Origin: Verrucomicrobiota bacterium
Lineage (GTDB): Bacteria > Verrucomicrobiota > Verrucomicrobiia > Limisphaerales > CANJXF01
Assembly (NCBI GenBank): GCA_038214755.1
Contig: JBBQRQ010000002.1
Span: forward strand, 1 to 64,000
Length of the DNA stretch: 64,000 nucleotides
Reading direction: 5' to 3'
Shown here: in pieces, positions 8,638 to 12,888 of the stretch
How the letters are laid out: every line of letters begins with the position of its first letter
How positions within the stretch are numbered: the first letter of the stretch is position 1
Position numbers and translations under genes: made by a program
Notes under the pieces: generated by a model
Told to the model about the DNA's origin: nothing
Database searches by the model: none
Seen by the model: only the letters and a program-made list of their open reading frames with translations

Positions 8638-10503
8638 ATGAACTTGGAATTGATACCATGGATTGTTTTGTTCCTTCCGCTTCTTTCAGCGGCGATGATT
8701 ACATTTTTCACCCAAACGAATCGCCCATTGAGCGCGGGCATTTCCATCGGCGCAATTGTCATTTCGTTTATCGCCAGCGCCGTGCTGTTTTTTAACTATC
8801 GCAACGCAGCACAAATTCCCGACGCAACTCTCTCGTGGCTTTCGGTCGGCAATCTCCAGATCGACATCGGCATCAAGCTCGATTCCCTCAGCCTCTTGAT
8901 GCTGCTCGTCGTGACCGGCGTGGGCGGCGCGATTCATATTTATTCCTGGGGCTACATGCACGAAGACCGCGACGTTTCGCGTTACTTCGCGAGCCTCAGC
9001 CTGTTCACGTTTTCCATGCTCGGCATCGTGCTCGCCAGCAACTTCGTCCAGATGTTTATTTTCTGGGAACTGGTCGGCGTCTCCAGCTACCTCCTCATCG
9101 GTTTTTGGTATGAACGCGATTCCGCTGCGGACGCCGCAAAAAAAGCGTTCATCACCAATCGTCTCGGCGACTTCGGATTTCTCCTCGGCATCATCATGGT
9201 GTGGGCGTTGGCTGGCTCTCTCGATTTCACCGCGCTGCAACAAACTTTCAAATCCAATCCGCAAATTCTCGGCGCGTCCGCCACGCTCGCGGGCTTTTTG
9301 ATTTTCTGCGGCGCGATGGGAAAATCCGCGCAATTCCCGCTGCACGTCTGGCTTCCCGACGCAATGGAAGGCCCCACTCCCGTCAGCGCATTAATCCACG
9401 CCGCGACGATGGTCGCCGCTGGTGTTTACATGCTGTGTCGCGTTTTCTTTCTCTTTAATTTGCCCGTGCTTGAAATTGTTTCCTGGATTGGTGGATTCAC
9501 CTCGTTGCTCGCCGCCGTCATCGCCGTGCAACAAAACGACATCAAACGCATTCTCGCTTATTCGACTCTGTCGCAACTCGGCTACATGGTGATGGCTGTG
9601 GGTTTGCAAGGCCCGGCTGCCGCGATGTTTCATCTGACCACGCACGCATTTTTCAAAGCGCTGTTGTTCCTCGGTGCGGGATCAGTGATTCACGCGCTCC
9701 ATCACGAGCAAGACATCTGGAAAATGGGCGCATTGAAAAAGAAAATGCCCATCACCTTCTGGACATTTTTGATCGGAACACTCGCGCTCGCGGGCGTTCC
9801 ACCATTCAGCGGATTTTACAGCAAAGACGAAATTCTCGCGGCCGCTTACCATCACAACATCGCGCTCTTCATCGTCGCCACCATCGTAGCCGCGCTCACC
9901 GCGTTTTACATGTTCCGCCTTTTCTTCGTGGCGTTTCTCGGCGCATCAAAATCCGAAGCAAGCGATCACGCGCACGAATCTCCCGCCGTCATGACGTTGC
10001 CGTTGCAATTTTTAGCGGCTCTGTCCCTCATCGGCGGATTGATCGGGATCGACACGTTCATTGGGAAATTCTTTGAACCCGAAGTTCACGCGCTTTCGTT
10101 TGGAGAACGAATCTTCGCTCCATTCGGCCATGCGCCATTGCCCGCCTTCTTCGGAATTTTTGCCGCCGTCGTCGGCTTCAGCCTCGCCTGGTCGCTCTAC
10201 GCCAAAGCGCCGCGCGATCCGTTACCGGAAAAACTTGGCGCGCTCGCGACCTTGATGCGCAACAAATTTTATTTCGACGAAATTTATCGCAGCCTCATCG
10301 CCATCACGCACGAAGCGATTGCAAAATTAGTGGACGCGATTGATCGCTGGATTATCGCTGGGTTCATCGTCCGAGGCGCGCACGGCACCACCGAACTTTT
10401 CGGTCGCGGCCTGCGACTCATGCAAACCGGCAACCTGCAAACCTACGCGTTCCTGTTCGTCGCTGGCGTGGCGGTGGTGCTGTGGTTCGTGCTTTGGAAA
10501 TGA
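8638..10503 (+). CDS. nuoL: NADH-quinone oxidoreductase subunit L
   Basis: GKSAQFPLHVWLPDAMEGPTPVSALIHAATMV, DIKRILAYST, HAFFKALLFL. Confidence 0.97.
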   Translation: MNLELIPWIVLFLPLLSAAMITFFTQTNRPLSAGISIGAIVISFIASAVLFFNYRNAAQIPDATLSWLSVGNLQIDIGIKLDSLSLLMLLVVTGVGGAIHIYSWGYMHEDRDVSRYFASLSLFTFSMLGIVLASNFVQMFIFWELVGVSSYLLIGFWYERDSAADAAKKAFITNRLGDFGFLLGIIMVWALAGSLDFTALQQTFKSNPQILGASATLAGFLIFCGAMGKSAQFPLHVWLPDAMEGPTPVSALIHAATMVAAGVYMLCRVFFLFNLPVLEIVSWIGGFTSLLAAVIAVQQNDIKRILAYSTLSQLGYMVMAVGLQGPAAAMFHLTTHAFFKALLFLGAGSVIHALHHEQDIWKMGALKKKMPITFWTFLIGTLALAGVPPFSGFYSKDEILAAAYHHNIALFIVATIVAALTAFYMFRLFFVAFLGASKSEASDHAHESPAVMTLPLQFLAALSLIGGLIGIDTFIGKFFEPEVHALSFGERIFAPFGHAPLPAFFGIFAAVVGFSLAWSLYAKAPRDPLPEKLGALATLMRNKFYFDEIYRSLIAITHEAIAKLVDAIDRWIIAGFIVRGAHGTTELFGRGLRLMQTGNLQTYAFLFVAGVAVVLWFVLWK

Positions 10504-11618
10504 AACCCAAACCCGCCAACAAAAAATCTTTGAGCAAGGCGAGTCTCGCCTCGCCGAAGATTGTGTCCGCACTGCGGACGCAATCGGTGCATAGCGCCAC
10601 ACCCAAGGTTTTGCTGACAGATGTGCGCGAATTGATCGTCACGGCTCGCGGTCAAGTCGCGCAGGTCGTTAACGCCGGTTTGACGATGCTCTATTGGCAG
10701 ATTGGCCAGCGCATTCGGCAAGATATTCTTAAAGAGCAGCGCGCGGAGTATGGAGAAAAGATTGTCGTATCCCTGTCACGACAATTGGAAAACGAGTTTG
10801 GACGAGGTTTTGCAGAAAAGAATTTGCGACGAATGGTGCAGTTCGCGGAAGTTTTCCCAGACCAAAAGATTGTCGTATCATTGATACGACAATTAAGTTG
10901 GACGCATTTTCTTCCCCTTATTCCAATTGATGATCCGCTTAAACGCGACTTCTATTCTGAGATGTGCCGCATTGAAAAATGGAATGTGCGGACATTGCGA
11001 AAGAAAATCAGCGGAATGCTTTTTGAACGCACCGCGCTCTCAAAGAAGCCCGACAAACTCATCCGTCAGGAATTGTCCGCGCTCCGCGAAGAAGACAAAC
11101 TCACGCCCGACCTCATTTTCCGCGACCCCTACGTTCTGGATTTTCTCAAACTGAAAGACACTTACGGCGAGAGCGACATCGAAGCCGCGATTCTGCGCGA
11201 GATCGAGTCGTTCATTCTGGAACTGGGCGCGGGCTTTTGCTTCGTCGAACGCCAGAAGCGGATGCAGATTGACGACCGCGACTACCATCTCGATCTCCTT
11301 TTTTATCACCGCAAACTCCGCCGATTGGTCGCGATGGAATTAAAGCTCGGGGAGTTTGATGCCGCCGACAAAGGCCAGATGGAACTCTATCTCAACTGGC
11401 TCAAGAAACACGAACAAGGCGCAGACGAACAACCGCCGCTCGGAATGATCCTATGCGCGGGCAAAAGTCAGGAACACGTCGAACTTCTGGAAATGGAGCG
11501 CAGCGGCATCCACGTCGCGAGCTATCTGACGAAGATCATTCCGAAAAAGCGATTGGAACAAAAGCTTCACGAAGCAGTTCGTCTGGCGCGGGCGCGATTG
11601 GAAGGGAGAAAACTGTGA
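10500..11618 (+). CDS. YhcG / DUF1016 family PD-(D/E)xK nuclease
   Basis: LYWQIG, FGRGF..KNLRRM.QF, LSWTH, DPYVLDFL, ELGAGFCFVERQ, DLLFYHRKL, ELK; ATGA overlap with the nuoL stop. Confidence 0.9.
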   Translation: MKPKPANKKSLSKASLASPKIVSALRTQSVHSATPKVLLTDVRELIVTARGQVAQVVNAGLTMLYWQIGQRIRQDILKEQRAEYGEKIVVSLSRQLENEFGRGFAEKNLRRMVQFAEVFPDQKIVVSLIRQLSWTHFLPLIPIDDPLKRDFYSEMCRIEKWNVRTLRKKISGMLFERTALSKKPDKLIRQELSALREEDKLTPDLIFRDPYVLDFLKLKDTYGESDIEAAILREIESFILELGAGFCFVERQKRMQIDDRDYHLDLLFYHRKLRRLVAMELKLGEFDAADKGQMELYLNWLKKHEQGADEQPPLGMILCAGKSQEHVELLEMERSGIHVASYLTKIIPKKRLEQKLHEAVRLARARLEGRKL

Positions 11619-11620
11619 CC

Positions 11621-12000
11621 GTGAAACGCATCAATTATCGAAAGATTGCGTTCGCGCAATATCTCCAGTTTGTGCGCATTGCGGATTCGGCATTCCTGAC
11701 GTCTTGGAGGTTTGTCATCTCGATTGTCAACGCAGTAACAACGATATTGGCAATCTTGTGATTCTGTGTCCCACGTGTCACAAGATGCACGACTTGGATT
11801 TAATCTCTACCGAGACCATTTGCACGATGCGTGATCGCCCAAAGGAAGTGCGGTGGGCCAAACGTATGAAGGACGCGGGCAAGAAAGCGGCGTTAAGTCG
11901 GAAAAAAAGTGCATCAACGTTTCGTCGCAAATGGCGGATTGCAGGGTTGAAAGCCGCCGCAACACGGCTACGCAATAAGAGCCAAATGACACAAACTTAA
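11621..12000 (+). pseudogene. HNH endonuclease, frameshifted near 11665
   Basis: MKRINYRKIAFAQY in one frame; CAHCGFGIPDVLEVCHLD...NNDIGNLVILCPTCHKMHD in another. Confidence 0.75.
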
Positions 12001-12006
12001 TTTTAG

Positions 12007-12138
12007 ATGTCCACTCTGAACTACATCTTCCTGCTCCCGCTTTTTGCCGCGACTGTGTTGGCCTTTGTTCCACGCAATTTCGCCATCAAAATTTCAAACC
12101 GAGATTGGTGCAGCCCGATTTCTGTATTTCATTTTTGA
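12007..12138 (+). pseudogene. Divergent nuoM 5' fragment
   Basis: MSTLNYIFLLPLFAATVLAFVPRN versus NuoM MSILTSIIACPLLAAFLVLFIPRN (12 identities in 24 aa, ungapped), then unrelated sequence. Confidence 0.7.
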
Positions 12139-12155
12139 GCCTTAAATATTTTTAT

Positions 12156-12476
12156 ATGAAAACAATTCCTCCAGAATTATTAAAAGAAGCCGTGGATCGG
12201 TTGAAAAAAGAATTTCAACCGGAAGAAATTTATCTATTCGGTTCACACGCCTGGGGCACACCGAACGACGATAGCGACGTGGATTTGATGGTGATTGTTC
12301 CTGACAGCCAGGAGACAAGTGTGCGACGAATGCAGCGCGCTCATCGGTGCTTGGGGGGGATGGGTTTCTCTAAAGACGTGCTGGTGCCGACGCGCAAGTT
12401 TGTCGATCGCTACAAGCATTTGCGCGCGTCCTTGTTTCATCAGGTTTTAACGAAGGGGCGAAAACTCTATGGATGA
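12156..12476 (+). CDS. Minimal nucleotidyltransferase (MNT) antitoxin
   Basis: IYLFGSHAWG...DSDVDLMVI. Confidence 0.9.
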   Translation: MKTIPPELLKEAVDRLKKEFQPEEIYLFGSHAWGTPNDDSDVDLMVIVPDSQETSVRRMQRAHRCLGGMGFSKDVLVPTRKFVDRYKHLRASLFHQVLTKGRKLYG

Positions 12477-12888
12477 GGCGAACATCGAAGCGGTTCGGGA
12501 TTGGTTGACCCGCGCCAATCACGACTTGCTGGCTGCAAGAACCCTCGAGTCGTTTCGCTCCCAGTTCGATACCGCGATTTATCACTGCCAGCAGGCCGGT
12601 GAAAAAGCGGTGAAGGCGTGGCTGCATTCACAGAATGAAGTTTTCGCCAAGACGCACGACGTTGAACAACTGGTGGAACAGGCGATGAAAATGAACGCCG
12701 GTTTCGCTCAGTTCAAAAACGCGGCGCAGATTCTAACCCCATACGCGGCGGCATTCCGTTATCCGGGTGGATCGGAAGAACCGATGCCCACTCGTGAACA
12801 ATTCGCGGAAGCTTTGCAACACGCGCAAAAAATTTATGACTTCGTGGTTGATCTTTTGCCGGGCGAAGCCAGACCCACCCAAAATTAA
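12469..12888 (+). CDS. HEPN domain protein (MNT-HEPN pair)
   Basis: WLTRANHDL, YHCQQAGEKAVKA, KTHDV, LTPYA..FRYPG. Confidence 0.9.
   Translation: MDEANIEAVRDWLTRANHDLLAARTLESFRSQFDTAIYHCQQAGEKAVKAWLHSQNEVFAKTHDVEQLVEQAMKMNAGFAQFKNAAQILTPYAAAFRYPGGSEEPMPTREQFAEALQHAQKIYDFVVDLLPGEARPTQN

Follow-up and report, generated by a model that had tools for sequence, protein, structure and literature searches.

The helix-turn-helix proteins ParB, KorB and SopB attach as dimers to short palindromes (parS, OB and sopC), which sometimes form arrays and sometimes lie in or beside the protein's own gene; one parS site lies within spo0J of Bacillus subtilis, although a literature search for confirmation of this point found nothing. 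Palindromes may also be translated. Rickettsia palindromic elements (RPEs) lie in frame within protein genes and are tolerated in the loops and linkers of the encoded proteins. According to the available part of one report, they are spread over many unrelated genes and their repeat identity is lost over time (PMC6649704). The same source (2019), again in its available part, describes coding palindromes of Nematomorpha in which both arms of an inverted repeat are translated, the symmetry being accommodated by codon degeneracy; arm-to-arm conversion by template switching was proposed as what maintains them, and their function is unknown. In Escherichia coli, imperfect repeats are perfected when, in replication, one arm serves as the template for the other (PMC7202029, PMC6357072); the accessible text of these papers presents template switching at such quasi-palindromes as an established mutational route (PMC7202029) that is stimulated by DNA–protein crosslinks (PMC6357072). 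The proteins of the YhcG/DUF1016 family are treated, in the available portions of PMC4316617 and PMC9881135, as uncharacterised predicted nucleases found on mobile elements and beside phase-variable restriction systems. Here, a yhcG-family gene was analysed that lies in a stretch of 64 000 nucleotides from a Verrucomicrobiota bacterium (assembly GCA_038214755.1, contig JBBQRQ010000002.1, positions 1 to 64 000 of the forward strand), hereafter called the window. The gene contains three palindromes of 25 bases, which comparison of homologous genes indicates to be local copies of a self-complementary element present at fixed places in almost every YhcG/DUF1016 gene. A literature search, in which subscription journals were outside the coverage, found no paper on an internal palindrome in YhcG, DUF1016, COG4804 or PDC-S02.

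The gene occupies positions 10500–11618 of the plus strand in the list of open reading frames (ORFs) and specifies a protein of 372 residues. Judged by its domains it is a full member of the YhcG/DUF1016 family (PF17761 plus PF06250), in agreement with an earlier note on this DNA, made by a model from the letters alone, that had called it a YhcG nuclease. Pfam places DUF1016_N at residues 41–177 (coding region 10620–11030; 158.9 bits against a cut-off of 32.8, E = 9.9e-47) and YhcG_C, a PD-(D/E)XK nuclease domain, at residues 206–356 (coding region 11115–11567; 155.8 bits, E = 1.1e-45), and the gene matches the PADLOC candidate defence family PDC-S02 (4.6e-129). Within the D...ExK residues of YhcG_C, D265 and K282 are invariant and E280 is nearly so in alignments of homologues. 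The best structural match of this domain is the nuclease domain of NucS (2vld_B, Z 8.9); a Foldseek search of the Protein Data Bank (PDB) gave weak PD-(D/E)XK matches, none at E ≤0.001. Two start codons may be considered, the ATG at 10500, which overlaps the nuoL stop codon as ATGA, and a GTG at 10587; with the latter, the first palindrome would be a non-coding element of the 5′ leader. Residues 1–30 are predicted to be disordered.

The earlier note had reported three palindromes in this gene, with 11, 9 and 12 of 12 pairs formed, and a script recovered them, a repeat search reporting the same inverted repeats. All three are 25 nt long, have a 12+1+12 architecture and lie in frame 0 of the ORF. 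Site 0 (10560–10584, 11/12, peptide IVSALRTQ) falls in the disordered N-terminal tail, or in the leader if translation starts at the GTG; site A (10761–10785, 9/12, IVVSLSRQ) forms part of a helix spanning residues 83–100 in the AlphaFold (AF2) model; and site B (10869–10893, 12/12, IVVSLIRQ) falls in helix 122–129. With the next residue included, the peptides read IVSALRTQS, IVVSLSRQL and IVVSLIRQL. Site B stands directly before the LSWTH motif of the N-terminal domain, as had been noted, a position that the Pfam placement of DUF1016_N corroborates. Sites A and B also form a direct repeat (10756–10786 and 10864–10894; 31 nt, 87% identity, spacing 108 nt). DNA hairpins are predicted for sites 0, A and B (–12.3, –6.4 and –9.7 kcal/mol, respectively), sites 0 and B having loops of 3 nt and site A a shorter stem of 8 bp. 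When the peptide of site B was back-translated by resampling synonymous codons, none of 500 samples reached 12/12 (mean 5.19, maximum 9). The 5.1-Mb genome assembly holds only 111 positions with at least 11/12 pairs, four of which are inside DUF1016 genes. Palindromes of the canonical form with at least 9/12 number 12, three of them in DUF1016 genes and the other nine without a common sequence. Two other DUF1016 paralogues of the genome have in-frame palindromes of their own at the same place, with different arm sequences, and in one of them the outer pairs are altered in a compensated manner, V..Q having become L..E. Site 0 is still palindromic in the two closest relatives, with different arms in each (11/12 in L171 and, by our own count, about 9/12 in L172).

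As a separate observation, a second DUF1016 paralogue of the genome (contig C2, ∼81150–81770, outside the window) has a low-complexity linker with three in-frame units in tandem, spaced by 69 and 75 nt; they encode IVAQPVRQL, IVAQLVRQL and ILSQAVREF and score 11, 11 and 10 of 12.

To place these palindromes in the family, 30 genes were taken from 401 sampled genomes of this phylum, the YhcG/DUF1016 domain being present in 156, and 80 from one genome per species over many phyla, a set that takes in Methanothrix, Wolbachia, Bacteroidota and Burkholderia. Removal of duplicates reduced 116 ORFs to 114, and three more were dropped for want of a W.[HN] motif near the aligned column, leaving 111. Site B was defined as the 25-nt window that starts 30 nt before the W codon of SW.H, and in the null model each codon was redrawn from the gene's own synonymous usage. 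Mean pairing at site B was 9.86 of 12, against 5.09 for the null; at least 9/12 was found in 94 of the 111 genes, and 23 were perfect. A scan of all offsets and frames gave two peaks only, at –30 (site B) and –138 nt (site A) from the W codon, over a background of 3.1 (standard deviation 0.57), with the next best offset at 4.98. Site A, 108 nt upstream of site B and the lesser of the two, had a mean of 6.76, and 43% of the 111 homologues had at least 9/12 there. An in-frame unit of at least 10/12 was present within the 140 codons before the W in 98 genes, where 1.2 were expected, and a unit of at least 9/12 was kept in 108 (97%), across bacteria and one archaeon. The positions of the element are thus fixed family-wide. 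A replicate was assembled from 80 metagenome loci, which, after three without a gene model were set aside, provided 77 independent genes. Mean pairing in these was 11.18 at site B (null 5.34; at least 9/12 in 76 genes) and 9.55 at site A (null 4.54; at least 9/12 in 59). Finally, 40 more divergent genes of the same phylum, a non-random choice made for long N-domain matches, were inspected with a frame-independent unit finder; 31 of them had at least one in-frame unit of at least 10/12 within 80 codons before W.[HKN], many having two or three. The comparison of homologues with codon-shuffled controls proposed in the earlier note therefore left its case standing, the genes being far more palindromic than their controls.

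The repeated peptide motif and codon usage might be held to generate such palindromes as a by-product, with no constraint at the nucleotide level, and I-V-x-x-L-x-R-Q-L alone does fix some pairs, the null pairing from peptide alone being 82% at pair 4/22 and 68% at pair 7/19. However, in eight of the 12 pairs a third codon position is matched with a second one, the null provides 5.1 of 12 pairs against 9.9 observed (with the 1.2 genes expected at ≥10/12 set against 98), and copies of the element in non-coding DNA are likewise palindromic. The synonymous-codon controls in the 111 homologues and the 77 metagenome genes refute this by-product reading, to which we attach practically no probability. 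The palindromes are neither chance nor a consequence of the peptide, and the effect is large and replicated.

What is conserved is symmetry, independently of sequence. The arms of site B are diverse, 83 distinct sequences being found among the 99 that score at least 8/12. In an alignment of 90 of the 111 windows, 82.0% of cells were paired, compared with 66.2% when partners were shuffled (none of 500 shuffles reached the observed value) and 28–49% when partners were slid by 1–3 columns; 21 of 24 pairs changed on both sides. The earlier note had argued that compensatory change between copies goes beyond what protein selection explains, and that the stretch is dual-coding; both ideas were supported, the former by covariation and the synonymous-codon controls, the latter by an arm complementarity with compensatory change that acts at the nucleotide level on top of the coding. 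Through its eight third-to-second pairs the symmetry fixes synonymous sites, and through the remaining four, which join first positions to first, it forces correlated amino-acid changes. In divergent subfamilies, one to three tandem units lie in a linker of variable length and encode non-helical peptides rich in P and G, such as IRHPSGGEF, which argues that the DNA symmetry, and not a helix-forming peptide, is the constant feature.

The pairing is strictly Watson–Crick. Among the mismatches of site B outside pair 12/14, G.T plus T.G amounted to 12 and A.C plus C.A to 18, near the proportions of the null and with no wobble excess, and at the variable pairs of helix 2 only 0–2 cells had one side changed (G.U-type), against 26–43 sequences with both sides changed. 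Pair 11/15 is Watson–Crick in 99% of cases, and even pair 12/14, which cannot form in any hairpin, is paired in 71% (null 25%), although it is the least conserved. Strict pairing, the lack of a G.T excess and the reach of the symmetry to pair 11/15 place the constraint on the DNA, to judge from these alignments in the form of a symmetric duplex, a hairpin or cruciform, or copying. Two other candidates were rejected. An antisense overlapping gene finds no support in the same-register antisense frame, which is open across A to B in 34 of 109 genes, with 27.6 expected. Nor was a larger conserved RNA structure supported by RNAalifold, which on the 90 sequences yielded the site B hairpin and no further conserved helices, or by a scan of Rfam, which gave no family match bar one chance hit at E 0.99.

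If the functional form were a single-stranded hairpin, either in messenger RNA (for pausing, as a barrier to decay or for 3′-end protection) or in single-stranded DNA during transfer or replication (for priming or recognition), complementarity would itself be what is kept. The predicted stability of the DNA hairpins and their 3-nt loops at 10560 and 10869 speak for this, as do the low conservation of the innermost pair, 12/14, expected of a loop position, the recovery of the site B hairpin by RNAalifold, and two non-coding copies in E. coli that follow the stop codons of gltD and yhcG by 16 nt, just downstream of a stop codon being the usual place for 3′-end hairpins. The absence of G.U tolerance in the stem, however, argues against RNA, there is neither an Rfam family nor any additional conserved helix, and the two fixed codon positions are left unexplained; we regard a hairpin function of this kind as rather improbable.

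The explanation that we favour for the conserved DNA symmetry of YhcG genes, to which we assign a probability of about 0.38, combines hairpin-templated copying as what keeps the arms alike with a use in cis as what makes the element persist, the protein itself probably binding there. In the first of these two layers, template switching at quasi-palindromes during replication or repair would keep the arms alike, a change in one arm being either reverted or copied into the other. Copying from arm to arm would make the symmetry sequence-independent and strictly Watson–Crick, and would render the units prone to duplication, loss and breakage. In the second layer, use in cis would explain why the element has survived in almost all lineages of a gene that is passed between hosts. 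The most plausible user would be the protein's own N-terminal domain; by binding the element it could tether, or make self-limiting, a nuclease that may do harm and that has no promoter of its own in the foreign operons where it lands, and the bound protein could itself promote template switching.

That the 25-bp units are discrete, duplicate and break is best seen in E. coli. In strain K-12, yhcG carries three in-frame units in tandem, scoring 11, 10 and 11 of 12 and repeating every 39 nt, and a perfect non-coding copy stands 16 nt past its stop codon, with another at the same distance past the stop codon of gltD (locus L114, 10971–10995 and 2633–2657, respectively). Each non-coding copy is identical to one internal unit at 22 of 25 positions, and the homology ends at the 25 nt. 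The unit region is present in 3962 of 5426 E. coli genomes, with at least 80% of it covered in 2707; four variant strains and a spread sample of 40 rows were examined. Strain O157:H7 has a single perfect unit and differs from K-12 by 78 nt in frame. In 18KM2445, units 1 and 2 are fused into a 12-nt palindrome, with a frameshift. In S10, yhcG breaks off precisely where unit 3 ends on its 3′ side and continues into other DNA, an end point shared by seven of the 40 sampled rows, and in EF7-18-51 an IS1-linked deletion stops 3 nt inside unit 3. Rearrangements thus have their end points at the units, which is the behaviour expected of self-folding DNA.

Two further observations concern these strains. 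In the two E. coli non-coding copies the central base is G instead of C, which also holds for six of the eight non-coding copies compared by eye, and a central G would correspond to an orientation opposite to that of the coding units. In S10 (L168, 1654–2125), the 3′ two-thirds of yhcG and the palindrome of its 3′ flank are replaced by a segment with an ORF of 101 residues annotated as 'transposase', for which no Pfam family was found.

Units within one gene are also related to each other. Sites A and B of the same gene agree at 5.79 of 8 arm bases, whereas permutation gives 4.55 (the observed value being reached in 0 of 2000 permutations), and in 13 of 39 genes they are identical at 22 or more of 25 positions. 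Between the window gene and a relative with 86% identity, both sites differ, with arms of the GTATC type in the window and of the GCCGC type in the relative. We count these two findings in favour of copying between units. Outside the coding sequence, a copy lies 40–105 nt before the start codon in four genes, in two of which, from Burkholderiaceae, it matches the gene's own site B at 23 of 25 positions. In the window, a short palindrome (ATTGCG-TTCG-CGCAAT, 6+4+6; 11645–11660) stands 26 nt past the yhcG stop codon and has the end letters of the first unit; it may be a decayed flank copy or due to chance, 6-bp arms being frequent by chance. In general, copies of a gene's own arm on its flanks are the exception, being found in 9 of 81 genes with 5.4 in the control.

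Many of these features would also be accounted for by a purely self-perpetuating, 'parasitic' palindrome without function, that is, an ancestral quasi-palindrome trapped in coding sequence, where its deletion is impossible without damage to the gene, and repaired by arm-to-arm template switching. Such a palindrome would explain the sequence-independent, strictly Watson–Crick symmetry, the tandem duplications, the break points, the likeness of units within a gene and the rare flank copies, and the same argument has been made for the coding palindromes of Nematomorpha in the available text of PMC6649704. Yet without selection many losses would be expected, whereas 108 of 111 genes keep a unit of at least 9/12, as do 76 of 77 metagenome genes at site B. 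It also leaves the tie of the element to one family unexplained; symmetry is held against strong codon bias, for example by ATT, GCA and AGA in two Burkholderia genes (L096 and L101, codons read by eye); and the gene pays for the element through disruptive rearrangements. An element without any function is therefore a possibility that we take seriously but consider the less likely one. In the explanation that we favour, a decayed palindrome cannot return, and since 97% of the genes nevertheless keep one, lineages that lost it must have been removed, which implies that the element is used.

The fold predicted for the N-terminal domain makes that domain the most plausible user. The AF2 models have a mean predicted local distance difference test score (pLDDT) of 83 for the whole protein and 86 for the N domain alone. 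In comparisons with VIA-align, the N domain matched the ParB of a ParB–parS complex (6s6h_B; Z 7.5, 102 aligned residues, root-mean-square deviation (rmsd) 4.3) and Spo0J (1vz0_A; Z 7.2, 91 aligned, rmsd 2.8), followed by KorB (Z 5.7 with 1r71_A, and 5.5), SopB (5.1 with 3mkw_B, and 4.9), VirB (4.8, 3vwb_A) and P1 ParB (4.1). The top matches are thus helix-turn-helix DNA-binding domains of the ParB/KorB/SopB type, and the recurrence of one superfamily, ParB/KorB, among them may point to a domain of that kind. Together with the non-coding copies before start codons, these matches are what we count in favour of a binding role.

Several points weigh against the explanation by copying plus cis use. 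A Z of 7.5 is middling for a helical domain, values below ∼13 possibly reflecting a mere common helical arrangement, and a profile search of the PDB with the window protein found no ParB; sequence and profile searches of that database gave no relative at all. Promoter-side copies are rare, five or six candidates having been picked among 111 genes, of which the four checked are non-coding. In 26 of 39 genes, at least three pair positions distinguish site A from site B, each site remaining symmetric, so a single sequence-specific reader cannot explain the symmetry, and the five E. coli copies have three different outer triplets. When arm sequence was compared with protein windows, the strongest co-variation was with the neighbours of site B (partial r 0.24–0.29), and none stood out for site A; this peak is equally explained by local linkage. 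Both the copying mechanism and the binding role are what we infer, the former from the pattern alone, and copying by itself is silent on why it is the YhcG family that carries the element. Some mismatches, such as T9.C17 of the IVVTLSRQL and IVVPLARQL groups, are shared by several lineages, and their persistence implies that correction is not very efficient. Position 12 is nearly always a purine (A 61, G 24, C 1 and T 1, where 21, 20, 28 and 17.5 were expected, and 53 of 53 units in the divergent set), a bias predicted by neither layer nor by any other explanation considered. Lastly, many of the other positions of the genome with at least 11/12 resemble, by eye, repeat families or chance.

The earlier note had offered two readings of the element. 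The first, an operator within the gene that encodes part of the very protein binding to it, is possible but unproven, with the ParB/KorB fold matches (at their middling Z) and the non-coding copies near start and stop codons on its side, and the divergence of A from B in the 26 genes against it. The other, a hairpin-templated hypervariable cassette that switches specificity, was not borne out: the same 25-mer is inherited across lineages with only 60–70% protein identity, and no variant at the sites was seen in contigs of the likely source sample (Logan assembled contigs, not raw reads). A bolder form of the operator idea would have YhcG bind palindromes that encode part of its own DNA-binding domain, so that site and reader, being one stretch, diversify together, with the NucS-like domain perhaps cutting mismatches in hairpin arms and thereby policing the symmetry. 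Each mobile nuclease gene would in that case have a private address on its own DNA. Compatible with this, the window gene and its relative of 86% identity diverge most in the A–B region, which includes the putative recognition helix (63–80% identity, against 87–100% elsewhere); we consider the proposal improbable nonetheless.

The genomic context of the gene bears on the question of mobility. The yhcG gene belongs to a guest island of 2.4 kb (10504–12888, plus strand) set exactly between the nuoL stop and the nuoM start. On the same strand follow a segment with an HNH endonuclease motif (11704–12000), which is below the Pfam cut-offs (best E 0.0028), has a frame that looks broken upstream and is probably a decayed gene, and a pair of ORFs for a nucleotidyltransferase (12105–12476) and a HEPN protein (12469–12888). 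In five genomes of the same genus, nuoL and nuoM overlap as ATGA with nothing between them (the unpublished genome G409 was left out of this comparison); in the window, the ATG of yhcG stands in for that of nuoM in the overlap with nuoL. The palindromes could be sites of recombination or mobility, that is, points of cross-over or cleavage at which modules or the whole gene are moved, inverted or exchanged. Besides the insertion of a guest gene precisely between nuoL and nuoM, this would fit the palindrome copies on the flanks of some genes, the rearrangement end points at the E. coli units, and the finding that site 0 of the window equals the site B of another lineage, the same 28 nt forming the site before LGWTH in another DUF1016 gene, on a soil metagenome contig (run X3). 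DUF1016 genes are, moreover, enriched beside targets of programmed inversion (odds ratio 17.4, in Table 2 of the partially available PMC9881135). Against it, neither target duplication nor palindrome was seen at the nuoL/nuoM junctions, and the 9 of 81 genes with flank copies of their own arm have to be set against the 5.4 of the control. Recombination break points at the palindromes were also sought and rejected, since segment identities and eight sliding-window pairs of diverged genes showed a fast-evolving N-terminal helix and no break in identity at A or B. Joints in the contigs of the source sample traced to DUF1016 genes of other organisms at 85% likeness, and none lay at the sites in the source organism. 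A Pfam scan of the neighbouring ORFs found no recombinase, no search having been aimed at a reverse transcriptase or invertase in the window. A mobility site is, on balance, an unlikely explanation.

Some palindromes of similar appearance were seen elsewhere. In locus L014 (∼2270–2490), the gene downstream of a DUF1016 gene has four tandem units (12, 12, 11 and 11 of 12) with four different arm sequences, spaced by 69, 45 and 78 nt. In the genome that holds the window, the sequence ATTTCCGAATCACTGATTCGGGAAT (C80:2927–2951, 11/12) has the canonical form of the unit but lies outside the genes that match DUF1016_N, with stop codons nearby in all six frames. Two families of GC-rich palindromic repeats, GCCGTCCGGCCACTGGCCGGACGGA-like and TCCGAGCGGCGAGTCGCCGCTCGGC-like, occur on dozens of its contigs, often ∼84 nt apart (for example C4:21972, C4:22056, C5:4158 and C12:18558), and look like repetitive extragenic palindromic (REP) sequences. 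Clusters of 25-nt palindromes of the form TTGANNTCNCAAATTGNGANNTCAA lie at C10:30840–31116, C52:29753–30114, C17:19839–20156 and C6:8329–8384, and may be operator arrays of some regulator; a palindrome of this form is also found upstream of a metagenome yhcG (L239, –457).

YhcG/DUF1016 is among the commonest uncharacterised nuclease families, with members in restriction operons, in defence islands and in E. coli K-12. The maintenance of a 25-bp symmetry at fixed codons in bacteria and archaea provides a rare example in which a constraint on the nucleotides takes precedence over the choice of codons and moulds the protein sequence. The palindromes offer an experimental handle on what the YhcG protein recognises, and a natural system in which the rate of hairpin-templated correction and the fragility of palindromes can be followed in vivo. 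They also carry a warning for annotation, as the helices and linkers of YhcG proteins at the units are constrained by DNA and not by protein function alone.

When compared with the described systems, the YhcG units resemble the coding palindromes of Nematomorpha in the features given at the outset. The latter, as far as the available text of PMC6649704 goes, measure up to 284 bp, are scattered, and are gained and lost between species within one organelle genome, whereas the YhcG units measure 25 bp and occupy fixed codon positions of one family across bacteria and archaea, only the extra units being variable; they are, moreover, discrete, have ATT...AAT ends and are also found as non-coding copies beside the gene. 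Rickettsia elements, dispersed and subject to loss of repeat identity, differ from the YhcG units, which are restricted to one gene family and retain their symmetry. From dispersed REP and RPE repeats in general, the units are set apart by the 12 canonical-form sites in 5.1 Mb and by the lack of a sequence common to the nine outside DUF1016 genes. The quasi-palindrome hotspots of E. coli show the perfecting of one arm from the other that is proposed here for the units, but are presented in the accessible portions of PMC7202029 and PMC6357072 as mutational hotspots in reporter genes, not as a force that conserves an element of a gene family. The ParB–parS, KorB–OB and SopB–sopC systems, finally, provide the best and most recurrent matches to the predicted fold of the N domain. 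In Pfam searches at E up to 0.01, however, the window protein gives only DUF1016_N and YhcG_C and no N-terminal CTPase (ParB/Srx) domain, it has no similarity to ParB at the sequence level, and parS and OB sites keep one sequence, whereas the YhcG units differ even within one gene.

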